DNA of 64,000 nt from Amoebophrya sp. A120 (taxonomy: Eukaryota > Protista > Dinoflagellata). The translations under genes were made by a program, and so were the position numbers. The stretch covers positions 2,457,407-2,521,406 of the forward strand of contig CAJINV010000012.1 in assembly GCA_905178155.1 (NCBI GenBank). Direction: 5' to 3'. Position 1 is the stretch's first letter. Every line of letters begins with the position of its first letter. Positions 1 to 44,110 of the stretch are shown in pieces. The notes under the pieces were generated by a model that did no database searches, was not told where the DNA came from, and was given only the letters and a program-made list of their open reading frames with translations.

Positions 1-1282
1 CCATGGTAGCAACATAAATTTTTCAAATAAATTTGTCAGCACTCAACAAGCTAGAGCTAAAACTTCTTTGACAACTTGTTTATCTTTTCAAAGCTGGCTC
101 TGTATAGCACCACTACTACTTCGCAGCTACGACCAGATCGTGAAGGGAGAAATGCAACCGATGCATGATTGTTGCGCCGGCGTTCTTGCTGACCTCGTCT
201 CGTGCGTATTATCGTACTCTTCTTGTTTGTACCCGCACCAGTGCCAGTGGTCCTCTCTTCAAAGAGGAAGGTGGTGCTAACGTCGGTTTGTAGGCCTCCT
301 CATAGCTGTTGCTGTCGTCCCATGTTGACACCAGACTGCGTCATTGATCCCCCCTCCAGCAACGGGAGCAGCAGCTAAGTAACCACAAGTTGTACGTCCT
401 CCAGCTCCAATGCTTCGCCCTGGCGCTGCATTAAACAACAAGTCGAGAATGCTATATTTCAACAACATACGACACAGACACTTAAACCTATACGACGGTG
501 CAACACTCCAGACTGAATACGTGTAGTGGGCTCCTACCCTGGGGGTCGTTTCCTTAAGTTCGTACAGTTCGTGGCTCAGTTTTTTCATATCTCTACTTAC
601 GGAAGTGTCAAAGGGCAACATGTTTGCCGGATTTTTAGAAAATCAAACCGAGCCAAACTTTGCAGCTTTCTGTAATTGAAACGCACTGAAAATGCGTATA
701 CTACTAAGCGATCAAGAGCAGCATCGCGACTGCCTCTGCTAGGGCAAGCAGTGGATATTACTAGAAGGTGTGTGGTATAGTCCTCGTGGCCGCTAGTAAT
801 AGCAATAGCATTATCTTTTCGCCTGCTTAATGGCTTTTCTTTTCAAATTTATAAGTAATTTCTTTCTAACGTAAATCAAAATCTGTACTGAATCATCCTA
901 GTAGTAGTTCTACGAGGATGTAGATGATGTCGATACAGTGCGTGGAATTCTTCCTAGAACTCCCCGCGGTAAAAACAAGTGTTAAAAGTCGCTCGCTGAA
1001 ACTAATTTGGATATACAACTGTGTTGACTTTCACTTTCTGTACTGTTCCAGAAGCGCAGCATTGCTTCTCAAGAACATTCATCGGTAGTTGCTTGCATGA
1101 GTACATGCAAGTATAATAAAATCATCATCATGGTCATCTCTGATACTTACTTCCACCAACTTCGGCCCACAAATCCACGATTGCAGATTCTGCGTGTAGA
1201 TAAATCGTGCCCAGTCTTCAAGTCCTCCTCCTGGTGGTCCTGTCCGTATTCACGTTGTTCGTCGTCTTCCAGTTCCAACTCG

Positions 1283-4200
1283 TTACTCGTTATCGCTCTC
1301 ATGAATGGCAGTCAACTGCTCGCCATTCAGCATGTCCTCGCTTTTTGACATGATCGACGTCGTCCCGTGATAATTACAGCTGTTCCCGGCTAGCATCTGC
1401 TCTACAGAAGTTCCAGTCGAAGCTGTTGTAGTTGTCACCTGCAACTCTAGCAACGAGTGCTCACTCCCGAGAATTCCGCCTGGACTGGAGCTGGGGGTCG
1501 CGGCGGTCTCTCCCGCAGACACATCCACCGCCGGAATGACGTATCAAATGCAAACATCCCTGGATGTCTGGAAACTTCCACTTGTGATGCAAGGAAGGGA
1601 ATAGGGCGCGCACTGTAATGCGCAGTCAAGCATGGCAAGTTTTTCCATGGTTCTGCGTTGCGTACCCCGCATGAGAAATAGCTGTGTTTTTGCATGACAG
1701 GCAAGAGGAGCTCTACTTTGTGGCCACGCAACACAGATTTCAGAGTCAGGCCGGGCTAGCATGACAAATCTCGTCGCAATCTCCCAGACGTCCAGGGATA
1801 TTTGCATTTGATACGACGGCTTTTTCGTTGAGAGTGCTGTCGTGGGTGTAGTTCATCAACAAATTATTGTCCCGGTTGTGCAATTATCCTGTGCAAAAGT
1901 ATCGCACTCGTAGTAATTGCAAACATGCATTACAAATCCAGTTCCTAAGGCAAATCCGCATTACAAATTTGAATTGCAATTTATATTGCAATTCAATACT
2001 AGGCATGCTGAGCCAATTTGTATTGCAATTTATACTAGTACGATGCTTTTGCATTTGATAGCAATTCATCGGCCAAGCAAGTGAGCCCCGCGACCGCCGT
2101 ATCGTAATCCGAATAGCTCCTGGGCGGTCCGACGATTGGGTCGGAGCCGAAGGAATCCACCTCGTCTCGGTCCTCGTCAAGCGGGGAAAGCAGCAAATCG
2201 TCCGCGGAGAGCGTTCCATGAAACAAGTCTCCATGCTGTCTTTCCGCCGGGGAGCGACAGGCCGCCGGGGAGCTACTCGAGGAGCACTTGGGGGGAGGGA
2301 AAGAAGACGAACAACCATGATCTGCTGTCATGATTGTGGGACAAGCAGGGCGCAACAGCTCCTGCATATCATCGTCAGTGGCGACATGATCTTCAACACC
2401 AGCAGCAAACGACCCGGACGACGACCGGGGTCCCGCTCCCGTACTAGGGCCAAAGGAGTTATTGTCATGCTGCATTAAACCTCCAAAGTCGGCATCAATT
2501 TCGTCGCCAACGTCCTCCATGATCTGTTGGTCCATGATCTCCATTTCCAGTTCGTCTTTCGGATTTTGTTCTCGGCAGTATGAGAGTGCACAACTCGACG
2601 TCCCCCGTCGTCCCGCTCATTTGTCATGCAAAATACCAAATCCACGACCCTTTGCCTCTTGGCACTTTTCGCATGACAAATTCTGGAAGCTCCTTAAACT
2701 ACAGCACTATATTCCAGGGTGGATTTGTCATGGCAAACCTGCATTCTTGCCGCCGCTTGTGTTGCTGTTTGTGCAAATAAAATGCAAACGAGGGCCGCGA
2801 GAGGGAGTTGTGCACTCATCTCATAGGCAGTGCTGAATGTCCATCTCGATGTCCTCCATCCGTCGGTCGAGTTCCTCGTTTTCGTCGCCCTGAAGGAAAT
2901 CAAGGAAATCGTGGCTGGTCGTGGGAAGTTGTGATTTGGACTCTCGAGGTAGACAAGTCCTCAGGTTCGCGTTGCTCGTGTTTCGACGCAGCTGCGGCTC
3001 TCCATCGAGGTGTTGTAGTTCGTTCCCAGACGACGTGCGCAATTTACTGGACGTGTTGATGCAGCTTGTCCCTGATGGTGTAACATTTATTTCCCCATCT
3101 TGAAGATCTTCCCCTCCCGCTCCACCAGCACCATCCGCCCTCCCTCCCTCGCTATTTCGCTGGCTGATCTCCATTATGCATTGCGAAAGTATCGCACTCG
3201 TATAAATGCATTACAAATTTTCTCAGCATGAGAAAGAAAATTTGTAATGCTGATTTGCCTGGAGCTGGACAAAGAAATTTGTAATGCAAGACCTGCATTT
3301 ATACGAGTACGATACTTTGCAATCCATATCCATCAACCGCTCGAGTTGCTGCTCCGGTGTGGAGAACTTGCTACTGTCCACGTCATATGCAATGCAAAAG
3401 CGTCGCACTCGTAGTAATTGGAATTGCAGTGTAAGTATGCATGACAAATCTCCGTTCCAAGGTAAAACTGCATGACAAATGTAATTTTTCATGCTGAGCA
3501 AATTTGTAATGCAATTCATACTAGTACGCTGCTTTTGCAATCCATACGTGAGGAAGCTTCTGTCCTGGGGAACTTCCAGAATCTTTCCTCTTCATCGGGG
3601 TTGCGCTGTTCGTGGTAGAAGTCGCAAGAGCATTTACATTTGTACTGTTCTGTGGCGTGGAGGTCTGGACGTTATTATTATTACCCCTTTGTGGTCCATT
3701 GTTCCCATTCACAGAAAAGGTTCCAGGCAACGGTGGGGGCAGGGGGTGGACGCGAGACTTTCCGTCCGTCGCCCCGTACTTCTCGCGAAGCTCCAGTTTC
3801 ATGACGCAGTGGAGGATGTACTTCCCGTAGGGAAACCGTTTCAAAATGTGGGTGTGTTCGCTATGGCGTTCTCAACTGTTACATTCTCAACCGTTACATG
3901 GATTTGTGATGCAAGAATGGGAAAAGTGAAAGGGAGGAGATTGCGCCTGTAGCATTACAAAATCCGTGCGGATTTAGGCGCTGTTTAGCCCTAGGCAAAT
4001 TTGTCATGCCAAGCAGCTTGATCGAGTGGATGATGATGGTGCTTCTGCATGACATCGGTGGTCTACGGGCAGGCTGTCCCGGTGGCGCTTTGGCCAATCG
4101 TACAGAGAAAAAACAAAAAATACAAGTTAGGTAGGAATACAATTGAAGGTTATGAATGAAGTCAAAAGTCGTAGAGACAGTATTAAAGTAGTTCCTACGG

Positions 4201-7200
4201 GCATGGTCACGATTGGGCAACAGAGGGTAGAGTCACGATTGGGCAACAGAGGGTAGAGCAACGAATTGTTACGCATCTATCCGCTGGTCAAGTACGAGGA
4301 AAACGAGAGCAGCATCGAAGAAGGGAAAGGCGCGCAAGCAGGGCAGCCCAGCAGCAGCAAAAATATCAAGACAAGAAGCAGACTACCGCCACCCGGGGTC
4401 CTACCCGACCGAGAACTGTACTGGTATGGGCCAACATACCATAAAAGGTACAGAAGAAGGGTAGGTGCTCGCGTAAAGAGAAAGATGACCAAACCTGGGT
4501 GCTTCTGCATGACAAATTCATGTAACAGTTGAGAATGTAACGTTTGAGAGTCTCATATTCGCGGAGTTTGGCAATCAGCTTCTTTCGCTCGTCGCCCTCC
4601 TATATCAAATGTAAAAGTGTCTGGGTCTGGAAACTTGTGATGCTGGGTGGCGTCTCATGATGAGGCCACAAATGCTGGCTCAGCATGGCAAGTTTCTGAG
4701 CTTCTAGGTGTTGCCTATTCTGCATGACAAATAACTGCGTTCCTGCATCACAGAAAAATGGAGCTCTTGGGTAACGTGCGTGACAGATTTGAGAGTCATG
4801 CCAGACAAGCATGACAAACATGCACTCTTCCAGACCCAGACATTTTTGCAATCCATATCCGAGATCAGGAGGAGACGCTGGGCCACGAAGTTACCTGTAG
4901 GAGGTTGTGGTTGAGGTTGTGCAGATGATGCAGCGCACTTAGACTTTTTCATCCCCATGCATCTTCACAAAAAGTTGTACTATCATGCTGACAAATTATC
5001 ACTTTATGCAGCAAAAATTCCAGCACAGATCATCCCTCATCATGTCCCCGTAGTCGTATTAAATACCGAACTTATCCTTCATGATTGTCAGTAGCGGGAT
5101 CTTGTGAACTGCAAAAGTATCGTACTCGTATAAATGCAATACAAATTATTTTCTCAGCATGAAGAGAAATGAAGTTTGTAATGCGGATTTACCTATAACG
5201 AAAAGATTTGTAATGCATGACTGCAGTACGAGTACGATACTTTTGCACAGCGTAAATCTTGTGCACATCCCGATAAGCCTGCAGCGTCGACCAGGTGCTG
5301 ACCCGTCCTATCAAGTACAAATATGTCTGGGTCTGGAAATTTCTGATGCTAAAAGGTGGATCAAGAAAACCCTTCCTTATGCAGGAAAGCATGACAAGGC
5401 TGCAGAACGCTTTCTCATGCGCAGTCCGCATGAGAAGACTGCGTTTTTGTATGACAAGAGGGGCTCCTGCGACTTTTGTTGGTCATGCAATACAGATTTC
5501 ACAGGAAAAATGTAAGAGCAGCAATACAAGTCCCAACTTTCCAGACCCAGACACTTTTGCAATCCATACGTCCGTTCGGCGTGCAAGTCGAAATTCGAGC
5601 GCTCATGTTCATCACACAGCTGGATGCTGGGCTGCCGCTTGTCCTGTTCATAAGGTCGAGATTGCTTTGCCGCAGACCACTGACCTGGTCGACCGCATGA
5701 TCGCCAGAAGGAGTCAACTCCCGGCGCCCGTTGTTCGGCGTGCACCGGCTGCTGGGAGGGAGATTTTGGTGCGGACCGGCGTCTAAATCAACATCATCAC
5801 AACTTTGCTGCGCCGAGTGAGCATCAACTCCACGACCGTCTTCGTTATTGTCGGGAACAAGCTGGTGCAGCTGTCGGTCGTGCGTAGAACCAGGGACGAG
5901 TTGTCCACCCGTAGAACAATTTTTCATGTCGTCACTGCCCAACAAGGCGGAGATTAGCTGCTTCTTGTGCCCGGAGTCGCCCTATGCATTGCAAATATGT
6001 CTGGGTCTGGAAGAGTGCAAGGCTTGTCATGCACATTTTGCATGACTCCTGATGTCTGTGATGCATGCTCTAGCATCGCAGATTTTGGGAGGGCTTCCTG
6101 ATGCCTATACTGCATGAGAAACGCCCCCTCGCCGTGGCAAAAACTGGACCTCTTCTGCTGATGTTCAACATGCAATACAGATTTATTGTGGAATCCAAAT
6201 CCAGCATGACAAGTTCCAACCTTCCAGACCCAGAGGACATATTTGCAGTTGATACTCCCTCCATCAGTGCCCGCTCCAGCGTGTTCGATCCGCAGCGGTG
6301 GGTTGCCATTTCCAGAACGTTATCGGCCAACGTGCTGATAATTGCGTCGCGATCCGAGGGTCGCCCGCGGTATCCTGAGCGAAAACGTCCCCACCCCATA
6401 GTCAAGATGGGAAACCTGCTACACAAATCAGCCAGCTTTTGTTGTTGCGCATGACAAGTTCTTTATTGGCGTCGTGGTGTAAAAATCCTGCTTAGCTTGT
6501 TTAGCAGCATCACAGATCTAGCCTCATTTTCTGATTGGAGCACTACAAATTCCAAACCACGACTAGAAAACGCTTGTCAATGGGGCTCCGCATGAGAAAC
6601 ATTTTGAGCATGCAGATTTGCATGACAAGAACTATGGAGTGGGGACGTTTTTACGTGGGATACGCGAGTCAGCATGTTTTGGACGACGTAGTTCCCGTAC
6701 TGATCTATATCCACAGTAAATTTCCCGCACACGTACAAATGCAGTCTCTGCATGACAAAACTTGCCTTCAATCCTAGTCCAGCATGACAAGTTGGACTCT
6801 GCAAGGTAACGAAATTTGTCATGCATTTTGTACATGTACAGGAAATTTACATTGCATAATCTAGAATCAGCTCGTAAACCTTGTCCTTCACGTAGTCCAT
6901 AATCGGGAACTTTTGCTCGTCCGCCCCGTGCTCGAAAATCCGCTGGACCACACGGCAGCCAAAGCAGTGCGTGATGAAGCGGTCGGTGTTATTCCGTGTA
7001 AAAACGTCCCCGCCCCATAGTCAAGATGGGGACTCGGCTAGACAAATCCACAAGCTTTGGCTGTTTTGCATGACAAATTTCGACTCGTAGTGTAGTGCTG
7101 TTTGAGCTATCTGAGCAGCATCACAGATCTAGTATATCATGCTGATTGGAGCATGACAAATTCCAAAAGACGATTGGAAAATGCTTCTCATCGGGCTCCG

Positions 7201-10200
7201 CATGACAAACAATTTCAGCATGCAGACTTGCATGACAACTCTGGGGTGGGGACGTTTTTAAATACGATAGGTGTTGCGGAGCACTGTGTCGACGAGGAAC
7301 TGGAACTTTTCCACCGGCTTCGTAAACTCGATCAGTTTCTGCAAAACGTGGTTCCCGTATGACAATGCACAACTCCCCCTCGCCCGCATTTGTATTGGTA
7401 TTGCATGAGCAGCAATACAAACGCCAGCGCCACGACTGGAGCCTGTGCATGACAAATTTACGTATGTGCCTGCTGTAGTACTGTTTGGGCTTTCGAAATT
7501 CTTCATGCAAACAGTGCCACAGTGCAACGACTGGGACTCTGGATTTGGGATTTTGCATGACAAATGAGGGGGAGCGGCGGGAGTTGTGCACTGTCATATC
7601 CCGTGCTGGTCCTCCATTAACACCGCCTCGTGCCCCTTCAATTCCGCAGCCAGGAGGCACTGCTGGTCAGACTGCGACACCTCGAAGGCCTTTTGAATCA
7701 CGCGGCAGCCGTGGCTGTTGTGTCGTGAAAGGGAGGTTTTGAGTCAATAATTGTTTCGCATTCTTCATGCACATGCGGCCGACGTTGTGCCTCGGCTCTT
7801 GCAAAATGTAGCGAACGCGGTTAGGCCCCTCGGTCATGATGCGCACTATCGGAAATTATAGCGAAGAAGAGCCCAAAGAATCAAAGACTGATTTAGACCC
7901 ATCTGCATGGGAGATCTAGCGGTAAGACAGCACTTCTCACCACGAGGAGATGGTCACAAAGTAAAGTCAGTGTCAGAATTATGTCAAACATATAGAAAAT
8001 GATTTGAGAAACAATTTTATGCTAAGAAAAAAAGTCGCTATTCATCAGTACGCGTGCAGCGAGAGTTTCAAACAGCTTCCCACGAGGTGCTCCGCCAGCG
8101 TTCGTTTCTGGTGGTTCAGCCCGACGTCGAAAAAAGCGATGATCACTTTCCCCGCAAATTTGTCCTTGCAATGCTCCACCAACTTTGGCAGCATCTGCAT
8201 CATGCAGTTCTGCAGGTCCGCGGGCTCGGATCTTTCGACAGAAGTTGAAGTCGTCGTGTGTTTAGAAGTATTCAAATTTATCTTGTTCTCTCTACTGTTG
8301 ATGCTTCTAGTAGTACAAGAACCATCGTCGTCTTTATTATTCTTGACCACGCCATCAACATAATTGTCATTCGTTATTTCCAAAGTAGTTGTAGCAGCGG
8401 ACAATGAATTTTCGTCCTCTGTCGCCGCTTTCAGCCGGTACAGGCACTCGAGAATCAAGTGCACCCCCATTGCGTCCTTGGCGAACTGCAGAAAAGGGCT
8501 GGTCCGGAGGCGGTCCTGCAGCAGCTCCTTCAGCGTGCAAGCCTTCCCCTGCTCTCGATAAGCGCGAAGCTGCGGACAGGCGTTGATGGGCAGCGGCGGA
8601 ATCTTCGCCATGGTTTCCAAAGACTGCTGGTACAATTGGGCGTTCACTGCGTTGTTACGCCGGTGGTACTCCGCCTGCGCGGCCGTTTGGTCCTGTCTCA
8701 GTCTCGTGTTGCGGTGCTCCTTATCGGTTTTCTGCTGGTACGAAGCCATCTTGTTCTGCAAAACTTTTTGCCCCAGCTGGTTTTGTATGCATTTTTGCAA
8801 AAGTACTATCGTATTATTTTAGAAGTGGAATTGGAAATTGCATTGCTCAGCATGATGTTGACAAATCGATGGATTTGCCATGGTGATCTTTTACTACATT
8901 TGAATTTGTAGTAATGCCATACTACCACGTAGGTACGATAGTACTTTTGCAATGCGTATCCTGGTATGCCTGGATCTGCTTGTAGTACTTGATGTAACTG
9001 TAGTTGCGGTGATCATGGTAGTTGTCTGGGCCGCGTTGATGGTTGTTGTTGTTGTTGGCGTACTGCTGGTGCATGTGCATCATATACTGCATATACTGAA
9101 ATCGGTTGCAACTGTTGCTCATCGCCTCCATGTGACGTTGCATCATCGTGGTCCCCGCCGAGTGCATGCGGTGCATCAAAGAACCGCTCATCGCGCACGC
9201 AGGAGCGACCCCGTGCATGTTGGGAAACCGGGTCATATGAAGCGGGTTGCACATGCTCGTGGTCGCCATGTTGGACATCATGCTCATGCTGTGGCTGGGT
9301 CCGCCACCTGCTCCGGGTGGTCCATTGTGGTGCCTGGTATTGTTTCCAGCGCCCCCGTTGTTCATCATTGTTCCCATATAAGTGCGACCCTGTTGTTGGA
9401 AATTGTCGCGGTTGTTGCTGAATCTGTTCGTGCCAGTATTGCTTCCAGCACCACCTCCTCCGTACATGCTATTCATCCTCTCATATGCGCTCTGCATCCG
9501 GCTGTAAGAGCCCGCCCCGGATGTCGATGACCCCCCACTCGCACCAGCTGCGGCACCGTGGCCATCGTTCATATTGTAGTTGCCACTCATGTTGAAATTG
9601 CCGCTCTGATGCTGAGCCCCACGATTTCCGTAGCCGTTATTGTAGTTCAAATTACCCCCGCGGTTCAACAAGTTATCATGATTGTTTCCTCCTCTGTTTT
9701 GGTAGTTGGCATGATGAAGATCTTGCGAGCAGTTATTATTTTTGAATCTGGAGGTTTGGTAGTTATTGAAAGCATTTGATGTTCCGATGTTGTTGTGCAT
9801 CTTACCTCCCCCATTGCCGTAAAAGCTGCCATGATTTTGATTGTTGCCGCCGCGGTTATTGTAGCCACAACCAGTATGGAACTGTCAGGATTGAAATTGA
9901 CAAAGTTGAAATGATTTGTCATGCATAAAATGGATGCCAGTCGGAAGCCCACTCATCAAGCGGCGCATGGCAAGTTTTCGTAGCACCGGAATCCAGTTTG
10001 TCATGCTGTTTGGTCACAGAAAACTGCTTTTGTCATGCTACTTTAGCAGCTCTATTTCAAACCCTAAACAGGCTCACAATCGGCCTCCCTTGCCTACTCT
10101 GCAAGACAGGCACTTTGTGGGTTGCATTTTATGCATCGCAAACTATGTCAACTTTGACGATTTCAATCCTGACGCCTCCATAACCAGAACCACCGCCATC

Positions 10201-13605: not shown

Positions 13606-15929
13606 TTTTCTATGCGGGAGTTACTACCTAGTAGAAGAATAACAGGTCGACGTGCTGAAGTACGGTGGTGTTCTGTTGCTGCTTGTCTGGTTCTGTGGTT
13701 GTCCAGAAATAGATGCTGAAAGAATGAGAAAATCCAAATTGCGTACGTTATCTCCGGCCGCGATAAGATTAAGATGTCTGGCTTTGTTTGGATAGTGCTT
13801 TTGGAATAATCATGCCGATTTGATATTAGGAGTCCTTGAGTCGGTTCGGCAGGCGTTGTGCTTCGCCGCCGGTCTTGGAAGAGGAGTTCTTTTTGTGGTA
13901 CAAATCATATTCTTTTCAAGTGGTTCTTTCTCTTGCTGTTTTTAGAAATTCAATTTGTCAAGGTTCAGCTTCTCTGTTCCACTGAAGTACTACTGGTCCG
14001 AAAAGTTCTGTGCAGGAGGGTCTTTGTAATTGGTGTGCGTGCTGTTGTAGTTGTGGTTGGAAAACGTTTTTGTCCGTGCGACCGCAGGCCTCGCCGTTCC
14101 CGATGTGTTGAATGATGGGCAGATAGACAGGAGTGGTTATCTGGATTTTTCTGTTGTATCCGCACGGCAACCCCAAACTCAGCGGAAAGACGTTCGGCTT
14201 ACTCTGTGCTGTTCTGTATTCTCAAATTGTCAGATCCAGAAGATCCACAAAAGAAAAAGTGATGCTGTATCTTCTTGTTGGTACCTCTAAACTATTCAGG
14301 AAAAATTCGAATACCTTTAATCTTTTCATCAAAAAAACTGTAAAAACTTCTATCTTAGTACTTCATAGATACCAGCACGACGGTGAAGCAAATGATGTGA
14401 TGTGCGGTATTACTTACCTTCTCGCTCTCGTCTGCTTTGCTCGTTTGCCTTTTTCCTAAATTTTTTTGACTGACTTCTTTCGAGAGTGTAAAGTGTAAAC
14501 TAATCTGTGACACGACGTCTAGGGTAGTGATAACGTTGCACCTTACCCAATGTCGGAGAAGAAACATGTAAGAAAGTTGTTGGTGTGAATAGATGGCGTA
14601 AACTTGTAGTTCTTGAATGTGGTGAAAAATAGATAAGTACACGATCACGATGTCATAAAAGATCGCATCACAATAAATCCGCGACAAAAAAGAACTGACT
14701 GCCGTGTCGTTGTGAAGCAGAAGCACATCCTGGTGAAGATCTATCTTCGCGTTGACCATAAAAAAAAACGCAAATAAATATAAAAGTGTTGAATCAGGTG
14801 CACTCACAGTACATCGAAAACACGTCGTGATCTTCAACAGACCTCCGCACGCTGCAATCATCATCTTGCGAGAATCTTCGTACTGGTGATGGAAAGAGTT
14901 GTAAGAGAGCGGACAGAACGAGATGAGCCAGAATCTATCACACACCTTCGAAGCTTCAGCTTTGTTGATCTTCGCGCTCGTTGCAGCGAATAAAGGTCTT
15001 TATTGAGCGAAGAACTCTGACCCCGACTCCTGCGCCTGACTGAAGAGCAGAGCGTCAGTCTGTTGTGGGCCACCGCTTTCTAAGCTGCGAAACCACCCCC
15101 GTGCTCCCTGTGGTCAGAGCCAGGTTCTGTCTGGAGCTCTTTTTCTGTTGCATCGTCTGCGTCTTTGTTGTTATCCTAACATCACTGTACAGTCTCTATC
15201 AAGGATATTCGCATCGGTCGTCGCGCACTAATTGTACATTTTTTTCCCGAATGAGGTGCGACGTATTTTCGTTTCTATATTTTTCGCTGCAACATTATCA
15301 TTGCTAGTGGTGCTCCACGACCTCCTAAGATGATTGTACAAAGCCACTCTTTGCCCAGGCGCTCTGTACTTTTTGTTTTTTCCTAATTTTGAGCCGCTTT
15401 AAAATTCAACTTCTATCGCTAAAAATCACTTCATTGTAATTCATTATACAGTCGCTTGTCACGGCGTTGTCTGTGCCAGGGCACAGGCACAATCTAAATT
15501 CACGTCGGGATTCGACATGACAGGAATCTAGAGGGTCAAGCGTAGGGACAACAAAGGTAAAACTTGTCAAATTGTACAATACAGAAGCTAATTTCATTTC
15601 CTAGAGAATAACGCTCGTCAAATCTGCTACAAATACATTATTTCAAAGACAATTCAGAATGGTAGTCTGTAATCAAGCAAACAAGATGAGATGTCTGGTT
15701 TGTTTCTTGGAATTTCTCCTGCCGTTAATACAGTATACCGTATCAACATCTAATGAATTCGATTTTAATATTGGCTCTAGTAACGGTACACGTCTGATAA
15801 GTCTTCAATGTGAAAGCTACATTTCTCTTGCGTGTTTGTTTATCGTCTGCTAGTAAAGGTCTGGATAGTCTGTCAATCTGCGTAAATTCATCAAAGCTAA
15901 GTTTGTTTTTGTCTGAGTAGGCGTACTAA

Positions 15930-17129
15930 GATTTTTCAGGCTGATGTTCATCGCCTGATGTCTTCTTCAAAGCCCCCCCCTTTTCGCCGGAAAACTTCTC
16001 CGAACGCCCTCGGGGGACGCAATTCATGCCAAGTCGATCGGTTTGGCGCGCTGGTGTAGTTCTTTTGAAGCTTAGCAAACATCTGCAGCAGCACGAAGAT
16101 CGGCGGCACAAAACAAATCTCCCTAGGCGGGCAATCAAAACCGGCTGACTTTGCGCGCTGTCAACAAAAGCGAAAACTCGTTGACTTTGCGCTTCGGGCT
16201 CGCCCCTCAGGAAGCAAATAAAAAGCCCGCGCCTTTTCGCTCCGTTTTACGAATAGGCTGGAAAAGTGGGGGAGTGAAACTCCACCAACTTTTCGCACGC
16301 AGCGAGCTTTCAGTCTGCCTCCAGAAGACACTCAAAAAACCAAGTGAAAGCTCAGCGGTGTTTTCACTCGGAGTGACAAGTCATTACACATTCCGAAAGG
16401 CTTAGGGTGGGAAAAGAAGTGAGAAGTCAGTGATTTCTCACTCTCGCGAAATCCTGACGGCTCGAAGGTCTTCGGGGCTCGAAGTACCTTCGAGAAAAGT
16501 AGTGAGAAATCACTGATTTCTCACTTTTGAAAAATTCTCACTCTGGAAAGAGTGAACGCGACTCCGACTCCGGAGTGAGAATTTTTCACAAGTGAGAAAT
16601 CACTGATTTCTCACTCCGTTTCTCGAAGGTATTCGAGAAACAGAGCGAGAAACCAGTGATTTCTCACTTTTCCCAAATGAAAATTTTTCAGAAGTGAGAA
16701 GTCAGTGACTTCTCACTTTTTCAAAATGGAAACTTTTGAGAAGTGAGAAATCAGTGATTTCTCACTTTTCCAGAATGAAAATGCTTCAGAAGCGGGAGGT
16801 CGCTGACCTCTCACTCCGCTGTTCGAAGACCTGCGGGAAACGGACCGGAGTGAGAAGTCTTCCAAAATGAAAACTCTTCCGAAGTCAGAAAGCGCGTTCT
16901 TCTCGTCCCGTTTCTGGACGGAATGTAGGCCCCTTATTTCTCAAAAAGAAACAGCTTCAGAATGAAGGCGGGCCCTTTGTGGCCCACGCGTCCACGCGCG
17001 CCCCGTTTGCGAAATTCTTGCGCTGCTACCCCTCGAAAGTCTTCGGGGAAGTTTTCCGGCTATCAATTCTATTAGAGGGTTGCGAGTCATGGATTTTTCA
17101 GGCTGATGTTCATCGCCTGATATCTTCTT
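15930..17129. repeat. ~1.1-kb segment flanked by 38-bp direct repeats and containing an array of 25-bp palindromes
   Basis: GATTTTTCAGGCTGATGTTCATCGCCTGATRTCTTCTT at 15930 and 17092; at least 7 copies of AGTGAGAAATCASTGATTTCTCACT between ~16418 and 16815. Confidence 0.8.
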
Positions 17130-17442
17130 TGGAGCACGAGATCGTGCAATGAATTTATTTCGTCGAGTCAAGTCAAGATTAATTTTCGCGTAAAAGTTTT
17201 GGCTTTCATGGCAAACAGTTACTTCGACAAGGTTCTCTTTCCGATAACAACAAATCGTGGACAACAACTTCAAGTGTGACAAGTTTTCAAATTGTGAGTT
17301 TCAAAGCAAGAAAGTCTCTACTACAACGACAGTTAAGCAAGTTTCTCCAATGATCTGTGAAGATGCGCATTTGAGACCATGATCTTCATGCTCATACCAA
17401 GTTTCATTTCTCTGCCACCACACATCTTCCTCCTCCTCTTCT

Positions 17443-20400: not shown

Positions 20401-23400
20401 GTCCGCGATTTCCTGCGCGCTTTGTCCCTTTTCCACGTACAGTTCCGGATCCTTCTATGCATTGCAAATATGTAGTCTGGGTCTGAAGGAAGGATGTGAA
20501 CCTGTGCTGCGCATGTCACAACACAGACAAATCTGTCATGCATAGGCAGAAAAAGATGCCCATTTCCTGTCACCTCCAAAGTGGGGGACTTGTCATGCGG
20601 ATTAAGCAATGCGGAAGCTTCTCGAACTCTGTGATGCTAGGGCTTCCATGACAGACATTCTGTTTTATGCAAAAACAGTATGGCAAAAATCTGCACTGCT
20701 CCAGACCACCCAGACATATTTGCATTTGATACCTTCACAGTTTCCACAATCTGCCCCATCGCGTTCTCGATCGAAATTTCGGCGGCGTCCTCGTCCTATC
20801 ATGTGCAAAAGTTTACTACATACTAGTACGTGTAGTTGCAGTTGTAGTAACTCTGGCAAGACAGATTATTTTTTTTTCAATTTCTATTTCAGCACCTGCA
20901 GCACAGCAAGTTCATTTATTTTTGGATGGGGGAAACATCAAGATTTTCAAGATATTCATCATATTAATATTTCAACATTTACAACTGCTATGCAACTCGT
21001 CACACTAGTAGCACGATCCACCTTTTGCTCTGCATACTGCCATTTTCTGCTGTTTCCTCTCTAGCGCCTCAGCGTGCGCGTTTCCACAAGAAAAGCATCT
21101 TTGCTTATGCATTGCAAAAGTATCGTACTAGTAGAAATCGCATGACAAATTTGCGTAGCATGACAAATGAAATTTGTAATGCAGATTTATCTTAGGAAGC
21201 AGATTTGTGTTGCATGATTGCAATTAGTGCGAGTGCGATACTTTTGCAAAGCATATTGCTTCATTTTGTTCAATTTCATTTTCTTCTGGAGAAACGACTG
21301 CTCGTCCGCCTCGATAAGCTCCTGTCTCGTTTTCGGACTGGCCATCTCGTACAGCATCTGCTGAATCTATGCAATACAAATTTCCCGCCGCACATGTACA
21401 AAATGCATCACAAATTTCACCAATTATTGGAGGATAACGCTTGTTATGCTAAACTAGGATCGGACGCAAGTTTTGTCATGCCGAGACTGCATGTGTAGTA
21501 CGTGTACGGCTACGGGAAATTTACTGTGGATAGCATCTTCCGGCTGTGTTCGGCCTCTTGAAGTACCGCAGCGTCGGATTTGGCGGCGGTGTCAGGAGTG
21601 AGCAAGTCGTAGCTTCGCTTCGCCATCTGCTGCAGCGCTTTCACCGCGCGCTCAGTCTGCTTCCGCATCTGGATAAACGATCCTGACCCTTCGAGCGACA
21701 TCCTCAACTTATCGCCGCCCTCACCCGCCTTGCCCTGACCCAGGTTGACCGGAAGCGCTTTCACAGCGGACACCATGGCGGCCCGCCGCTCGGCATCTGT
21801 TTGGAAGAGGAATTGCGATAATTTCGAACATTCTAGCTTCTAATACTTCTTGCACGACTTTTGCATAAAAAAGTGCGCGATGGTTCTCGTGCGCAGCTGC
21901 TTTTCAAATCTGCACAACTATCGACGACGACTTGTGCAAGAAGACTCCATAGTCCGGTCCTCGGAACAACTACATGAATCCTAATCCATTTTCTTAGACA
22001 TCAAGGGGGCTGCAGCTGCAACGAACGACCTCCAGCAGCATCGCTCCTGAAAAGAATTTATAATTATCAGCAAAAAATTTCTTCTATACGCTGCGCGTCC
22101 ACGGTTCTGCAGGCAACGATCTCTCCCTTCTCGTTGGCATATGAAGTGCAAATGAATCGTCTTCGTCTAAATGCATTACAAATTTCCTCAGCGTGAGAAA
22201 TAAAATTTGTAATGCTGATTTACCTCAAGATAAAGATTTGTAATGCATGATTGCAATACGAGTACGATACTTTTGCACAGGATATGGCAACCCGTTCGAC
22301 CAAGTTGAGATGTAAGTCAACCGCTATCAAAGTGAAAAAACCCCCCTCCCCCTATTGAAGCGGAAATTTCTGTTGCTGGATTTGTGTACACAAATCAGCG
22401 CTATAGTGCAGCGAGCGCTTGCAGGCATTTGCTGTGCCTGATTAGGTATGCAAAAGGCTAGCACTCAGGCATGACAGACAGCTCTGCAGTAGGCAAAAGC
22501 GCATTACAGATTGGCTGTGGAATGCGCCACACGGCTCCAGTTGCCTCATATACAAGACAGAGCTGATTTGTGGTCACAAATCAGCATCACAAATTTCATT
22601 GTGAGTATGGGGAGGGGGGCTTTTTCCTTACGATAACCGTGTCGAAGGTACGCTGGACGGTCTGCAACGCCTTCTTCCCAAGCTTCCGGAAGTTACTCAG
22701 CGTTCGCTCCGTGCTCTCTTGGTAGCGCTGTTTGATGGACAAATTCTAACGTGTACGTAGAAATCTGTCATGCTACTATAGACATCTGTTGCACTGCGTG
22801 TCATGCAAAATAGAGCGGCATAAAAATATGGACGCCTGTTCTTGCTCCGTGTCTACTTGTACTTTACCTGAATCGTCATGGTCATTTCACGGGCGATGGT
22901 CTGCGCCAGAAGTGGGTCGTTCAAGTTCAACGGCGTCCGAAGCATGAAGAAGGACAGTTCCGTCATGATCCGCGTTGCGTCAGCCGCACTCGCTGTGACC
23001 GCCCGGAGCATGCCCTGCACCATCTTGCGGCCCATCACCGCAACCTCGAGCAAGCGGTCGAACATGTTCACCCGGAGCTCCGGATCCACCAACGTCGGGT
23101 TCATGCGCTTGGTGAGCCCGAGTTCCTGGGCTTGCTTCGTGCGTTCAGCTGTTTTTTATGGGAAGTTGTATGTTTGTAAATACATTAGTACTCCTCTACT
23201 GCACTTCTCCACCTCCAACTCCAAGGTCATAAGCATGATCGTACTGAATGAAAAATGCCAGGACAAAGATTTCATTTCGAGAGAAGAAATAAGGAAAAGT
23301 AGTACTCAAAGTCGAATCCTGCCAATCCCAGAAGTCCGCTCGCTTCACATTTTGGAAATCGATCGCGTACATGCGCAGCGCGATGATCATTTCACGCATG

Positions 23401-29096: not shown

Positions 29097-31860
29097 CTAT
29101 ACTAAGCCCTGCTGCAATTTGCCGACAATTTTCGGAATCGAGAGCATCTTGTCCTCGTTCCCTGGTCGCGCGTCGTATTTCTCGTCGTCGGCCTGGGAAA
29201 ATTTCCGCTGAAAAAAGTTGACCTCGATGGTTGCCACCCTTGTGGAACGCAAAATGTCCTTCGCGGCGGCAATGTGGGCGTGGATGGTAGGCAGCATCAA
29301 TCCCGGAATCGCGTCGACCAGGGGGTGGAGGTTCGCGGCCTTGCCTTCCTCGTGTTTCGTCGGATTGTACAGCTGCGCTTCGACCCGGCCCGCGCGGACG
29401 GCCATGACGGTGGAGGTCTGGGCGAGATCCATGAACTGTTGTACTACGGGGAAAAGTTCAAGAATAAGAATTTTTGCAAAAATAGCTAGGCGGGTTCGAT
29501 GAGGGCGCAGAAGCAGATGGCGAAATGGACTCCGCGCTGCAGGTCGGGGAGGTACATCTCCAGCTGGAAAACCGCGGAGGGTGGCTCGTGAGGGTGGCCC
29601 AGAAGCATTGCGCGCGCCCGCTTTCGGATCGGTCTGAAGGAGACACTCCTTACAAAAATGCGGCAGCCTCAAAACTCGCGCCCCTTTTTGCTTATAGGTC
29701 GTGATTAGCATGAAAATAGGCAATTACTAATCGGTGCTGAGTTTTCAAGAATGGACAGGGTGGGGGGTTCCGAAAAGGGCCCGGAAACGGCCAATTGGCG
29801 CCCCCCCTCTGAGCCCCCAAATCGGCACCATAGCATGGGTGCTGAGTTTTCAAGAATAGAAAGATCGACCCCCCTGAAGACCCCCCCGCGAACGCCCCCG
29901 CGGAGGCCCCCCCCTTGAGATTTTTTGGCCCTCCGAAAGGGCCACAGAATTGGGCTCCGGCTCCCTTTGGGTTCCCCGGCCAACAAAAGCATCGGGCGAG
30001 GGCGGGGCCGGGGCGGTGGCCGGGCCGTAGAAGCGCCGGGCCGCAGCCTGGGGGTGGGGCCGCAGCCGGCCTTTTGTATTTTCCCCTTTTTCTTCCGTGT
30101 TTGGCATATTTCTTGTACCTACTACAAAAAAACTACAACAACACGACCCAGCACCTACCGTCGCTGGGCCCCCTAGTCAATTTTTGCTCGGATTCTTATT
30201 CTTGAACTTTTCCCCTTAGTATGTTGGGAGGTTACTTCATCCAGCTCAATGAAGTACTGCTGGCACTTCACAAGCGCGAGCTTGTTCATCTTGACCAGGT
30301 CGGTGCTCATGTCGCTCATGCACTGGTTGGCCTGCGCAAACTCTTCCACGCGGAGACACTTCTATGCATTGCAAAAGTATCGTACTCGTATAAATGCAAT
30401 ACGCATTTCCTCAGCATAAGAGCTGGGATTTGTCATGCTGTTTTACCTTAGGGACATCAACGTTTCTTGTCATGCATAATTGCAGTTAGTACGAGTACGA
30501 TACTTTTGCTCAGGATAACTTCTGGTTGTAGCTGATCCAATCCATCTTCTCGAATTTCATGCGCATCGCCATGGACCTGATTTTTTACATACATCAGGGA
30601 TGAATTACGTAAGTGGAAGTAAGGATTGCACGAGGTGGAGAAAATGTTGTCTAACGTAAACTTACTTTCCTCTATAATTCTAATTTTTCCTATGAACGAG
30701 GAAAAATGATGCAATTGCAATAAAATCAAACTGTTTACTGAAATCCCCGATAGGCCGCGTCTGTTGGCTGTTGCAGGTGCTGGCTCGCGTGCATCCAGCG
30801 GTTGCGTTCTATCACGATGTGGTGCAGCTTAAACGCTTCCTGCGCCCCAATCATGTCCAGTTGCAGGGGCGTCATTTCCGGCGCTCCGTGTTCCTCGATC
30901 TCCTCCTGCAGCTGCTTTTCGGCTATGCATTGCAAACATGTCTGGGACTGAAACTTGAACTTGTCATGCGAACACTGAATCACGCATAGGTCTGTGTTGT
31001 ATGATTGCCAAAAGTTGTAGCTGTCCAATTTTGACCAAGTCAAGAGAGAGTTTCTCATGCAGGAGAGGCATGATTGAGAGAACAAGATCTCTCGTCAGGG
31101 TATTTGTCCTCATGCGGCGGGGCCGTGCATTCCCTACCCCATGGGTCACGGTCATGGAAAACCTGCATGAAAAGGCTTGCAATCTTCCAGTGACCCAGCA
31201 GACATATTTGCAGTGGATATCGGCCTGCGCTTTGTCGCCCGACAGGTTCACGGCGTCCTCGCCGGGCAGCACCTCGGCGTGCTCGGGATCCTTCAGGACA
31301 AAGACCGGCTCCGGGTTGGCATCGTCGTTTGCCGGCGCCGTGGCGTCAGCATTCCAGAACGGAAGTCGTTTGACATCCTCCAGGGTCTCCGGAAGCGGGA
31401 CCACTGGCATCGGCAGGACGTTGGTCGACAAATCTTCAAAAATGTGCGCGGCATTCTCGTCCTGCGAAGGTTGTACAACTTCTGGAGCACCTTCTTTCGA
31501 AGTCGAGAGATCTTCGAGCGGTGGCGCTTCTGATTCAGGCTCTTCGTAGTTCCCGTCCGGAATAGGATCTCCTTCTGGCACGATGGGCTTGCTCGTCTTT
31601 ACCGAAGCCACGACGCCGGTCGTGATTGATGGGCAAGAAAGGTCGTTGCAGCCGAACAGAAGCAAGGACATCATCCCGCTAGCTGCTGTGTTTCTCATCT
31701 TGTTTCTGGTTGTCATGCTGGTGCTAGAAGCCGTTCTCGTTCTGTTTGTCGTGCTGCTTTTGCTAGAAAATAAGGCTGCACTTCTAGAAGACGAACTGCT
31801 GCTCGAGGCGGTTGTACTAGTTTGGGAGAAATAAACCATTTTCTCCACTGCTAGTACCAA
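29097..31860 (-). CDS. Hypothetical multi-exon protein (S/T-rich N-terminus, hydrophobic stretch, acidic Pro-rich region)
   Basis: Open exons 31220-31860, 30735-30923, ~30236-30362 and 29097-29435; no family recognised. Confidence 0.55.
29445..30218. mobile_element. GC-rich non-autonomous TIR element (MITE-like), TA-flanked, distinct from the introner families
   Basis: GGGGAAAAGTTCAAGAATAAGAAT...CTAGG at left and its reverse complement at right (~43 bp imperfect TIR); TA on both sides; internal duplication GGTGCTGAGTTTTCAAGAAT. Confidence 0.8.
30363..30517. mobile_element. TIR introner-like element (family A)
   Basis: TIRs; DR acttc/acttc. Confidence 0.9.
30924..31219. mobile_element. TIR introner-like element (family B)
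   Basis: TIRs; DR tcggc/tcggc. Confidence 0.88.
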
Positions 31861-38776: not shown

Positions 38777-41141
38777 TTACAAGAACATTTTCTTCCGGCT
38801 GACTTGCGAGTCGGGTCGCCACTGGTACTCGTATTCTCCGTTTTTTGAGTCGAAAGTCCCGTTCTGTAGGTACCGGAGCTTCAGCGTAAACCGGGGTCCG
38901 ATCTCTTTTAGGCCCGCGCGGACAAGTTTCTCCCCGCTGTCGTTTACATACCCGTCTTCATCTTCTGAATTCGCTTCACCCGCGTTTTATCGTATGTAAA
39001 AACGACCCCACCACATAGAAGTTGTAATGTAAATCTGCATGCTGAGAATGTTTCTCATGCGGATCCGCCCCATGAAAAGCATTTTCTACAGTTGTGCTTT
39101 GGAATGTGTCATGCTCCAATTATCACCATGGTATGCTAGATCTGTGATGCCCAGCATCGCGGCGCGCTCCTTTTGAGCTAGTTCAGCGGCAATTGCTGAA
39201 CTAGCTCAAAAGGATTGCACTACGAGAACCAGCTTGTCATGCGCAACATACAACCAAAGTTTGTTGATTTCGCGTAGCAGATTTCCCATCCTGAGTAAGT
39301 AACTATGCAAAGGTGGGGACGTCGTTTTTAAACAGGATACCTTCTTGCTTTTCTTCTTTCTCTTCTCTAGCGCTTTCTTCCGCAGGGCTGCCGCGTCATC
39401 CAGGTCGGAATCTTCGGAATCATTCATGTCTATCGAAAGGAAAGATCCCCCCTCCCGCCCCATATCAAAACAAAACTTCTGATGCTGGATTTGTGTACAC
39501 AGATCCGACCTGTCTTGCTGGAGAGCACTGCAGGCCCATACCAAGCGTGAGTAGAGAGGTTTTGGCCTAGGCGCTTAGCATGAAAAACGTCCGTGCTGTA
39601 GGCCCAGCAGCATGACAAACCGCCCGCATAATGCGGCGGAGCCTGCGGAGTTGCCTTCTTGCAAGACAGACGCGATTTGTGATCACAAATCAGCATCACA
39701 AATTTCCAAAAATATACCTTTTGAGTATGGGGAAGGGGAATTTTTTCTTTTGATAATGTCCTCGTCCTCGTCCATATCGTCGTCAGAACCTTCCTCGTCC
39801 TCACTGTCGCTGTCCTTCTTTTTCTTCTGTTTTGCCCCGGTCCTCTTCGACCCCTTAAATTCGTACCGGTAGTGCCGGAAAAAGATGAAGTCCCGCTGGT
39901 TGTGGAAGGTGACCGACCTTCTCCCGTTGAAGTCCGGCTTCTGCGGAAACGCCGTGGCGAGCTGGCGCGCGACTCTGCGGCCTAAGCGGGTGGAAAAGTT
40001 GTTCAACAGCAGCTCCGGATTCGCGTCGGAATTGCAGTACGTCGACTGATATCAACTGCAAAAATGTCTGGGTCTGGAAACTTGTAATGCTAAAAGAGAA
40101 TGATAGACGCGCCGCAGTACGCAGCTATGCATGACAAATTTTGTGGCTGCCATGTCTTACGTATTCCGCATGGCAAACTGCCTTTTCGCGTCACAGTTAA
40201 GAGGGCTCTTTCGTGCCTATGCAACACAGATTCTTGAGTCATGCCAGACAAGCATGACAAACTTGCACTCTTCCAGACCCAGACACTTTTGCATTTGATA
40301 ACTGATTTCTGCGCATTTCCTGGCCGAGTTTGAGTTTTGTCAATTTGAAGAACGCGGTGGGGCCCTCCGGCAGGTTGCAGATGTACATGCCGTTCACCTT
40401 TTTCTTGTTCTCGGTGACCACCATGAGCATGGTGAAGTCCCGTTTCTTCGCGTACTCGATGATTTGCTTCAACGATAAGCCCTTCCGCTTGTAGTACTTC
40501 GTATTCGGAATGACCTCGACAAGCTCCTTTAAAAAGTCGAACATTTTTGTGCTCGGCTTCAGGTTCGTGGTCAGCATGATCTTCGGCTCCGTTTCGAAGT
40601 TGAAATGGGGCGAAAATTCGTCGTTTTCCTCGTCATTTGCGATCTCTTCGTCCAGAGCGGTGGTTTGGTCGATAATCGTTTCGTTCTCCTCCCGCATCAT
40701 ATCCACGGTGACAGCGCCCGCGCCCTTTTTCGGAAAACCGAGGGCCTGATAATTCATTTTGATGAGACGCAGATAATGATAATCCTCGATACAGAGATTT
40801 ACGATTCAGTTTCTTTCAAAAAATCGATTCTGAAGCAGGAGGGTTGTAAGCAGGAATAGTACAAACTGTAACTGAGGCTGCTGTTACTATATAATATCTG
40901 AAAATACCTCTGGATCCTCGCCATTTTCCTCCGCCTCCTTCCTGCCTTTTCTGATTTTTTGTTTTTTCAGCTTTTTCGCCCTTTTGTCCTTGTCGTGCAG
41001 TTCGGATCGCATGATTTTGTCTTTCACATGTTTGAAACTGTTATCCTCCTGCTTGCCGCAAGCCGGCTTGGTGTTCCGTCGCTTCTTTGCCAGTTCGATG
41101 GCCAGCTTGCGCTGTTCCTTCTTTACGGCCTTCTTCACCAT
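38777..41141 (-). CDS. RPF1: Ribosome production factor 1 (Brix-domain protein)
   Basis: EPKIMLTT, NLPEGPTAFFKL, PELLLNNFSTRLGRRVAR, VTFHNQRDFIFFRHYRYEF, LKEIGPRFTLKL..GTFDSKNGEYEY..SRKKMFL*; one GT-AG intron (40746-40907) and three TIR elements. Confidence 0.93.
38988..39339. mobile_element. TIR introner-like element (family D)
   Basis: TIRs; flanks cgttt/ccttc; removal +5 nt gives in-frame SKKAGEANSEDEDGYVNDSGEKLVRAGLKEIGPRF. Confidence 0.9.
39431..39755. mobile_element. TIR introner-like element (family H)
   Basis: TIRs; DR atgtc/atgtc. Confidence 0.9.
40050..40300. mobile_element. TIR introner-like element (family B)
   Basis: TIRs; DR actga/actga; frame restored (RRNQSTYCNSDANPELLLNNF). 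Confidence 0.93.
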
Positions 41142-42719
41142 TGTTTTTTTTTGTAAAGTAATATTACAGATTACTTCTAACGAAGAGGAAAGATGATGAG
41201 AAAAAAAGACAGGAGAGACGAGAAGTGTTGTTGCGTGGTGGTCGAAATGGGAGATCAAGTAGCTGCAATACTCAATTAGGGGTACAACAACTCGTAGCAA
41301 GAATGTCTGTCCGTCGATTGTACTGATCTACAGATCTGAAAAACTTGTCGCATTCACGATACTGTGCACGACCTTTCATCAAGATGAAACTACATGAAGA
41401 TAAAGCTATCTTGATGTCTCGCAGCTGGTGATGTTGTACAGGGTCTATTCCAAGAAGGGAGGTTTCTTTTCTTTCTCATCGACGAAGCAATCGCGTCTAT
41501 ATTATTTTGCCTCCAACTCTCTCGTCGGGGCAACTGCTAATGCTATCAAAAGAACTTGCAACTTCTACTTGCAAACTCCTTCGCGCCATATTTTCATCAA
41601 TGTAAGGGGCTAGATGAAGGAAATTACACACACTACAATCCACCGAACGGAATGAACCAAAACCAAAAGCGCCGTCGTGATCCAAGAGCATTTGCACTAG
41701 CGCTGTCATCCCATGACTTTTCCACCATCATCCAATTTTCATCTCTGGTGATCTAGATCTCCTTTCTCTATATTTCGATCAGAAGGTCAACACAGAGATT
41801 CTCCTGGTGAATTAGTGCGCACTTATTTTCAAGACCATGATCATTGTCTTTGTCAGCATCATTAATTTTCATTGTGTCTTTCGCTAAGATTTGATCTGTC
41901 GATCATGAAGCACATTTCGACCACCGCTCAGCACATCTAAAAACTTGCTTCCAAAAATTCCAGAAGTTTTCTACATCTTTTCGTACCTCCGAAACAGGCA
42001 GAGAAGAGCAAATCAGTGTGACTAAGCGAGCAAGAACAACGTGATTTTCGATCTTCTTGAGCAACATCAAGGATTATATAACATTCATTGAGCAACGTAC
42101 AAGGAGTAAAAACAGTGCGGCTTTTCAAGAGTCGCTACAGCAAAACTTATTTGCTTTGACTGCAAGCGCAGTAGTAGTTCATCTTCCACCCGATGCTAAC
42201 GAAATAGGGGTAGTAGAGGAGTTGATGCTACAAAATCATGCGTAAGCTAAGGTGGATAACAATACCCACGCAAGAGCATCAAGAGCACAACATCTTTTAC
42301 AGGAGGGTTCCAGCAGGAGTCCGCACAGTATTCTTTCCACGCAGAAATCATGCGCTGGGCTGCGACTGTCTAAGTTAGTAGTGTAAGATCAGTAACTTGC
42401 TAAAAAAGAAGTTGTCCCTCCTGCTTCAAGAGCTGAAATACCGACGAATTTGAGCCCACGCTAGAATTGCAACAACATAATTATAATAATAGTGAAACGA
42501 ACTTGGCCTCCCCCTTTGCTATAATCTATAGGAGGCACTTAGAAAAATAATTCTAAACGAATGTGCTTAGAAGGTCTCATCTAGAAGCTTCGTGTAACAG
42601 ATTGAACGCGTTCCCGTTATCTGTACCCCGTACCGTCGTGCAAAGTGTTATCCTGCACGCCCTGGCGAGCATGTGAATGCCAGCACCAGAATGGCCAGAG
42701 TGGCCGAATCATGTGAATG

Positions 42720-44110
42720 AATGATGGCCGGAAGCTCCTTGCCCAGCCGGGCGGGGCAAAAGTGACGGCGAGCGGCTCCTTGGCCATCACCTCCGCTCGA
42801 GCAAAGTTGAAACTTTTGGCCATCACTTTCCGGCCGGGCAACAGTGGTGGCCAAGAGCTCGTCGGCCACCACTTTCCGCTGGCTCGGACATAAGTCATGG
42901 CCGAGAGCCCCTTGGCCATGACTTTCCGGCCGGGCAAAAATGATGGCTAACTAAGGGCCCCCGCCGGCCTGGCCATCAATTTTGGCCATCACCTTCCGGC
43001 CCGCCGGGCAAAAGAGACGGCCAAGGGCAGGAGCTCCTGGGCCATCACTTTCCGCTTCCGGTCGGGCCCTTGGTCACTCCTTTGACTTTCCAGCCGGGCA
43101 AAAATGGTGGGCAAGAGCTCCTCGGGTGCCATCATTTTCCGGCGGGCCGGGTAAAGTGGTGGCCAGGGGCTCCTGAGCCTTCACTTCCCGGCCGGGCAAA
43201 AGTGATGGCCGAGAGCTCCCTGGCCATCGCCTTCCGCCCGGGCAAAAGTCCTCGCCAAGAGCCCGCTGGCCATCGTTTCCCGGCGGGCCGCTGGCTCGGG
43301 CTGAAGTAATGGCCTAGAGCCCCAGGGCTATCACTTTGGGCGGGCAAATTGTGAAAACCGACTTCAAGTCCGAATCCCCCTGCTGTCGTCGGGATGTTTG
43401 TTGTCGCGAAAGCCTTCGCGACGGCATCCGGGCGACAATAGGGGGACTCGGACCTGAGAGCGGTTTTCACAACTTGCAGCCCAAGCGTGAGAGCCATTCC
43501 CAACCTCGAGCCCCCCTGTTGTCGTCAGGATACTGTCGCGAAGGGCTTCGCGACAGTATCCTGACGACAGCAGGGGGACTCGGACTGGAAAAATGGGAAA
43601 GCCATTTTCTCGAGTCCGAATCCCCCTGCTATCGTCAGGATACTGTCGCGAAGCGTATCCTGACGACAGCGCGGGGCCTCAAGCAGCTTGAAGCTGGTTT
43701 CTTTCGATAAAAAAACCCTTTTCAAGCGCTGGCAAAAGTGATGGCGAAGAGCTCCCTTCCTGGGCATCGCCTTTCGGCCGGGCGCAAGTGATGGCCAAGA
43801 GCCCCCTGGCCGCCAACGTGGCCATCGCTTCTCGGCCGGGCCAACGTGATGGCCAAGAGCCCCGCGGCCATCGCTTTTCGTTCGAGCAAAAGCGATCGTG
43901 GCCATCGCTTTCCGGTCCGGCAAGAGTGGTGGCCGAGAACTCCGCGGCCATAACTTTTTGCCATCGCTTTCCGGTCGGGCAAAAGTAACGGCCAGAAGCT
44001 CCCTGGCCATCACTTTTCGGCCGGGCAGAGAAAAACGGTGGCGACAGCTCCTTGGCCATTACCTTTGCCCAGCGCTTTACTGTCGGGCAAAAGTGATGGC
44101 CAGTAGTTCC
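42720..44110. repeat. Satellite of ~45-bp palindromic units with an embedded second palindromic module
   Basis: Many degenerate copies of GGCAAAAGTGATGGCCRAGAGCTCCYTGGCCATCACTTTCCGGCCG; 43340-43700 has TACTGTCGCGAAGGGCTTCGCGACAGTA and GGGGGACTCGGAC/GTCCGAATCCCCC; runs into the gap. Confidence 0.85.

Follow-up and report, generated by a model that had tools for sequence, protein, structure and literature searches.

Background

The closest described counterparts of the elements considered here are the introners of Amoebophrya A120, which, in the part of the published account drawn on here (PMC7789003), are bounded by inverted repeats composed of TAT, seven variable letters and three As, are flanked by short direct repeats, measure about 240 nt, fall into many families, are associated with co-oriented genes and are removed as non-canonical introns, mostly at NT-xx sites. 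In the same part of that account (Farhat et al. 2021, PMC7789003) no transposase is reported in A120, and the mobilisation of introners and their splicing without U1 are stated as open questions. The A120 families of Gozashti et al. 2025 (PMC12130899), among the 21 of 58 A120 rows considered here, are mostly designated 'TIR DNA, unknown superfamily' and have lengths of ~150, 210, 255, 280 and 305-320 bp. One A120 family in the considered portion of that source contains Copia/Gypsy-like frames inside inverted repeats (PMC12130899), and it is a candidate for the mobiliser.

The short elements of the window (the whole 64-kb stretch of A120 DNA that was analysed) fit these published introners. They share with them the TAT-N7-AAA ends, the short direct repeats, the non-canonical removal, the length of about 240 nt, the setting in co-oriented genes and the multiplicity of families, as far as the part of PMC7789003 used here extends, and their terminal inverted repeat type and sizes are similar to those of the A120 families in the 21 of 58 rows of PMC12130899. 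They differ in that the duplication is a uniform 5 bp, against the short direct repeats of PMC7789003. The considered text of PMC7789003 deals with terminal repeats only, and the internal motif, the spacing rule and the conservation test come from the present analysis; similarly, no shared internal motif is described in the considered rows of PMC12130899. A literature search recovered no description of this motif, and figures S19 and S25 of PMC7789003 may show it. The elements are of a known kind; what appears to be new is the internal word, common to the families and set in helical phase.

Short repeated words inside transposon ends have a precedent in Herves, whose hAT transposase binds short subterminal words cooperatively (PMC3143072). 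In the part of that study considered, the Herves subterminal repeats resemble the window word in being short, in lying inside both ends and in being related to the terminal repeat, and they are needed for mobility; however, the Herves word is specific to one element and has a known transposase (PMC3143072), whereas the window word spans at least 14 families with differing inverted repeats and fills the whole element at helical spacings. Features of subterminal transposase-binding repeats (hAT/CACTA type) found here include several copies near both ends, in both orientations, and conservation above that of the flanks in active lineages. The target duplication of hAT elements is 8 bp, as against 5 bp in the window elements, and Ac, Tag1 and Tol2 are reportedly further hAT elements named for subterminal transposase-binding repeats. 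Dinoflagellate introners are also said to be treated by Roy et al. 2023. On the splicing side, the nonconventional introns of Euglena (Nomura et al. 2025, PMC12501133) likewise depart from GT-AG and, in the part of that source drawn on here, have a signal tied to paired ends and fixed cut distances; the Euglena code is terminal and strand-specific, in contrast to the window word, which is internal, repeated and strand-neutral.

The elements, their ends and their placement

The window elements are inverted-repeat transposons 109-370 bp long, bounded by TAT…ATA and flanked by target duplications of 5 bp. The catalogue comprises 77 short elements recognized by paired ends and flanking duplications, 19 of which were added by hand; a degenerate element near 45830-46100 and a motif-free 780-bp element were excluded. 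In nearly all families the end consists of TAT, seven variable letters and mostly AAA. The 5-bp duplication is perfect in 48 of the 77 and carries one mismatch in 21 (at most one mismatch in 69), and no other length fits. Additional copies were obtained by scanning metagenomes with the end pattern of one family, which recovered 168 distinct loci, all on JACKZZ01 contigs; these contain the same element families as the window, in a set biased towards the family whose end pattern was queried. Pooling both sources gave 496 elements, with 14 families of at least three members. The terminal word itself scores as a motif in 108 of the 992 ends. Within an element, the left and right arms match at end positions 1-3 and 9-14, but agreement falls to 38-70% at positions 4-7, a regular mismatch that adjoins the splice sites. 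A search of a viral collection with the terminal pattern gave 0 matches; two matches to a motif pair, located in AT-rich, phage-like sequence that has a terminase-like frame (L002 being the one record checked for frames), were rejected as chance.

Among confidently labelled elements, 258 lie in predicted exons, 23 in mixed contexts, 12 in introns and 3 in intergenic DNA, as labelled by a home-made gene finder that over-calls exons in intergenic DNA and hence gives rough exon and intron labels. The intergenic segments 13650-17300, 40900-43400, 46700-48500 and 61700-64000 contain 0 of the 77 elements, and insertion seems confined to genes. Intergenic DNA does contain a modular palindromic element at 16430-16870, which lacks a motif match, and GC-rich tandem and inverted arrays surround an assembly gap at 42700-45110, again with no motif match in 43557-43642. 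In each of the five over-long elements inspected, a second insert sits in or next to the CATG core of a motif site, and several of these inserts have short tails of (ATG)n or (AATG)n and are bordered by direct repeats 8-17 bp long; they are likely to be non-LTR retro-insertions with a preference for the motif, carried within the spliced-out element.

The 780-bp element is GC-rich, has long inverted repeats and shares the 5-bp duplication, with TAC-N7-AAA ends in place of the usual ones. It lies in a predicted coding frame, and its removal restores a frame of 180 residues, as judged on the genomic letters alone. Since this young-looking element with similar ends is devoid of the motif, some mobile elements of this genome evidently do without it.

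A shared internal word

The 64-kb window contains 110 exact copies of the ten-letter word GCATNACAAA, against 0.93 expected (100 shuffles, the largest count being 4). Across the 77 elements 105 matches fall in element interiors and 3 outside elements, and 59 of the 77 interiors contain at least one. The learned matrix corresponds to GCA(T/A)(G/C/T)ACA(A/G)(A/G) and matches 76 of the 77 elements, at a density of 19.3/kb within elements versus 0.53/kb outside; as the matrix was trained on element interiors these densities are circular, a circularity of which the exact-word counts are free. The preliminary description had judged the motif apparently rare in exons and intergenic DNA, and so it is: transcript-verified exons contain 2 matrix matches per 3310 bp (0.6/kb) and intergenic DNA 8 per 10218 bp (0.78/kb). 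Enrichment of the motif in these introner-like elements is thus confirmed.

The same description called the families bearing the motif otherwise unrelated. Their bodies indeed cannot be aligned once the motifs are masked, with no cross-family match at E<0.05 for 18 subfamily profiles, but nearly all of them share the TAT-N7-AAA-like ends and the 5-bp duplication. Further, the motif is not scattered, as had been supposed, but set at fixed distances from the ends and from neighbouring sites. A motif site lies 28-56 bp from the end in 863 of the 992 ends and at 5-27 bp in just 2, and outward-pointing sites cluster at ~31, 41, 50, 60 and 72 bp from the end. Same-orientation site pairs peak at 31-33 bp, with 77 pairs at 30-34 bp versus 14.2 in random placements; when one element is taken per family, the corresponding values are 12.3 versus 2.4, and the 10.5-bp phase has an R of 0.41 versus 0.13. 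A 30-34 bp pair is present in 13 of the 14 families, and the spacing is replicated in 342 elements from other contigs.

The family-weighted best period is 10.5 bp for both same-orientation and divergent pairs, and the helical phasing that the preliminary description had suggested looking for is therefore present in these two classes. Convergent pairs (15, 33, 64 bp) show no 10.5-bp fit; with the 30-34 bp peak left out and one element per family the phase is borderline (0.32 versus a 95th percentile of 0.31), and no 10.5-bp phasing of element length is supported (p 1.0, 0.31 and 0.012 by clustering level). Relative to the transcript, the sites are distributed 103:84 in 43 elements (p 0.19) and 611:657 in 281 elements, where single-orientation elements are divided 14:13; neither count displays the strand bias expected of an RNA intronic splicing enhancer. 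The element families, too, insert in genes in both directions. The combination of helical spacing, anchoring to the ends and strand neutrality argues for a protein on duplex DNA.

The flagged element

The element in which the motif was originally noted (Table 1) belongs to a family that is high-copy by DNA contig depth, and it was aligned with six relatives. Approximately seven motif copies 15-45 bp apart had been claimed for it; six clear sites and a weak one are recovered, 23-49 bp apart, two of them exact. The interior is no more stably folded than shuffled sequence (z -0.07), and the z of -3.2 for the whole element comes from its ends. In the RNA run X9, ~80 reads fall on 4598-4632 and 6203-6234; they come from a single related element that has the same end and carries motif sites ~31 bp apart. 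The exons of the host gene, which encodes PUF repeats, receive no X9 reads at 90% likeness, and the X9 element alignments have loose ends; the reads probably derive from a copy retained in another strain or organism.

Table 1. Coordinates of the flagged element, its host gene and other elements discussed in the text
Feature	Position	Strand	Remark
Non-autonomous inverted-repeat element (introner), 255 bp	4603..4857	.	in coding exon of minus-strand gene
Left target-site duplication, 5 bp	4598..4602	.	one position differs from right copy
Right target-site duplication, 5 bp	4858..4862	.	frame needs at least first two transcribed letters
Left terminal inverted repeat	4603..4632	+	shared TAT-N7-AAA end and family-specific part
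Right terminal inverted repeat	4828..4857	-
Motif site	4634..4643	-	31 bp from left end, outward-pointing
Motif site	4683..4692	+	private change at 4688, where almost every other copy in the genome has the consensus letter
Motif site, exact word	4722..4731	+
Motif site	4745..4754	+	next site 33 bp on
Motif site	4778..4787	+	private change at 4780; next site 31 bp on
Weak motif site	4800
Motif site, exact word	4809..4818	+	39 bp from right end, outward-pointing
Host gene part, Pumilio/PUF repeats	1200..8780	-	14 such elements and two GT-AG introns
Control: older element, interior motifs broken	8786..8958	.	still removed exactly
780-bp inverted-repeat element	29442..30221	.	GC-rich; TAC-N7-AAA ends (TAC…GTA), 5-bp duplication, no motif
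Over-long element, window	3862-4557		insert about 4035-4513
Over-long element, L034	632-1465
Over-long element, L038	6314-6770
Over-long element, L068	571-1051
Over-long element, L069	3862-4492

Removal of the elements from the message

Pfam recovers PUF repeats in the host-gene product, seen only on single exons. A 7720-letter contig of run X1 (putative RNA) aligns to the minus strand of this gene in separate pieces, and X2, from the same sample, agrees. In five intervals the length missing from the contig equals that of each element plus 5 bases, and the two GT-AG introns (4895-5066 and 7715-8051) account for the remainder; the spliced length over 1200-8780 is 3393, which equals the span of the transcript contig. 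The flagged element is not retained, since only 157 transcript letters lie between 3857 and 5568. Hence, in the one gene checked, each element is absent from the message together with one copy of its duplication. Three elements with motif sites in a single orientation (6371, 6990, 7358) lie within the region for which the length removed agrees with that of the transcript.

The junction letters are drawn solely from the ends of the contig pieces (1537, 3546, 5977 and 8780). Where the two duplication copies have diverged they place the cut at or beyond position 4 (5983 and 8786), at or before 4 (1542) and at or beyond 2 (3386), from which we infer that cutting follows the fourth base of the duplication. 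The intron would then begin with the base preceding TAT and extend four bases past ATA; such a 5' cut fits the NT-xx sites listed for A120. A GT-AG reading is possible for 1 of the 43 window elements in confidently minus-strand genes, and canonical sites are only weakly favoured on the sense strand (GT-AG in 14 sense versus 10 antisense of 281). The older element used as a control retains one interior site at threshold, its next best scoring 3.6 bits, and its exact removal is reflected in depth ratios of 54.0 and 54.2 covered letters versus 54 expected.

In the 93 predicted GT-AG introns of the window and the metagenome loci that show no homology to elements, the motif occurs at 2.1/kb versus 0.5-0.6 in shuffles and exons; 20 of the 93 contain a match, and many begin with GTAT, as aged elements would. 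The intron at 22746-22867 is an example, and one pair among the motif remnants still has a spacing of 33 bp. On this sequence evidence, such GTAT-starting introns with motif remnants are probably aged introners that have turned into ordinary introns.

Conservation of the motif cores

Across 15 subfamilies the motif cores change at a rate of 0.0048 on internal branches versus 0.0304 for linkers (~6-fold), which answers in the affirmative whether the motif is more conserved than its neighbours, and at 0.0285 versus 0.0679 on terminal branches (~2-fold). Private changes, counted in 426 of the 496 elements, number 280 of 11318 core positions and 1583 of 30382 linker positions; the core/linker ratio is 0.48 when context-matched and 0.59 for the 68 closest-neighbour copies (91%+). 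The linkers carry little shared information while their spacing is kept. Selection on the copy-producing lineages is therefore clear. Mismatches between duplications give a post-insertion rate of 0.03-0.06 per site, and the terminal-branch rate of the cores is close to or below this, being lowest (0.0165) at the site nearest the end. This may reflect either the history of unsampled masters or selection after insertion, the latter being possible but unproven because a small share of all copies has been sampled. Core changes are not relaxed in the 13 GT-AG-readable copies (10 of 364 versus 148 of 5516; p 0.019 versus full relaxation), nor is relaxation seen in 10 intron-nested copies; these are small numbers with crude gene labels. 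Regression of core decay on age proxies was uninformative, the copies being of similar age.

Competing explanations and a proposed mechanism

The preliminary description had interpreted the motif as a code bound by a common factor that marks the element for excision. On this view, a host protein, acting on DNA during transcription or on RNA in either orientation, would read the word and recruit the splicing of non-canonical introns. This agrees with the two-fold slower change of cores on terminal branches, strongest nearest the end, with the almost exclusive location of the elements in predicted exons, with the scarcity of GT-AG readings and with the drop in density of the word to ~2/kb in predicted GT-AG introns, which would have no further use for it; moreover, U1 was not found in A120 in the considered part of PMC7789003, and a host reader acting at the DNA level would account for the phasing and for the symmetry between strands as well. 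Nevertheless, the control element is removed exactly despite its broken motifs, two of the six cores are altered in the flagged element itself, and removal of the site-free 780-bp element would, on the genomic letters, restore a frame. A non-palindromic RNA site should show a strand bias and none is seen, and the GT-AG-readable and intron-nested copies, few and crudely labelled as they are, are unrelaxed. Consequently, we regard an excision mark as possible but rather unlikely; its RNA version in particular is weakened, and the two-fold conservation on terminal branches may reflect a host role for the motif.

The alternative offered with it, that self-complementary motif modules fold the RNA interior and join the ends, finds some agreement in predicted folds, where motif bases are paired at 0.70 versus 0.57 for linkers, with about half of the pairing being motif-to-motif, and where interiors have a mean z of -2.35 (33 of 68 below -2). 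However, such modules are not needed: in the 9 of 68 folded elements with sites in a single orientation the ends pair as well by their inverted repeats alone (0.79 versus 0.77, the motif-motif share being 0.07), and the interior of the flagged element lacks any excess of folding. Pairing, besides, requires complementarity rather than one fixed word or a 31-33 bp spacing on the same strand, and this reading appears improbable. Still less credible is a functionless relic of one ancestor of all families. The common end rule and 5-bp duplication do suggest a common origin or machinery, but the six-fold slower change of cores between subfamilies, together with linkers that keep their spacing while holding little information and no cross-family homology, largely refutes it.

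We consider it reasonably probable that the word is a site on duplex DNA, most likely bound by one mobilising protein shared by the families. The occurrence of one word, common ends and a common duplication length across families suggests one mobilising machinery; accordingly, convergence of the families on a single motif does not by itself entail host-side recognition, as had been argued. The notion of one shared factor survives in that it is probably a DNA-binding one, in view of the phasing, the conservation and the unalignable bodies, but not as the reader of an excision code. Under the proposed mechanism, the repeated, helically spaced word, which lies within non-autonomous transposons that act as non-canonical introns, would be bound on double-stranded DNA by a protein common to all families. 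This protein, possibly multimeric and either a shared transposase/integrase or a host cofactor, might occupy several sites on one helix face and is predicted to help join the two ends for transposition. Master copies would be selected for sites and spacing while the linkers turn over. Splicing would proceed mainly via the paired ends and a terminal signal, the 5' cut falling a single base ahead of TAT, and the word would decay in elements that have aged into GT-AG introns. As for the protein itself, no transposase or autonomous element was found in the window or among the long elements of related contigs totalling ~0.5 Mb, a small fraction of the genome, and no transposase in the 80 longest of 127 long open frames there; Pfam searches with 15 window frames gave no match, to a transposase or otherwise.

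Implications

A broader variant, in which one host-encoded or domesticated protein reads the helically phased code, mobilises all families without family-specific transposases and also marks the DNA for splicing at the paired ends, is speculative and seems unlikely; if true, tens of thousands of non-canonical introns would owe their existence to one universal reader. The shared helical word offers both a bait for pull-down and a target for mutations that would separate mobilisation from splicing, and it provides a sequence signature for such elements and for their decayed descendants among GT-AG introns. A word shared in this manner would also mean that many apparently distinct families depend on one machinery.
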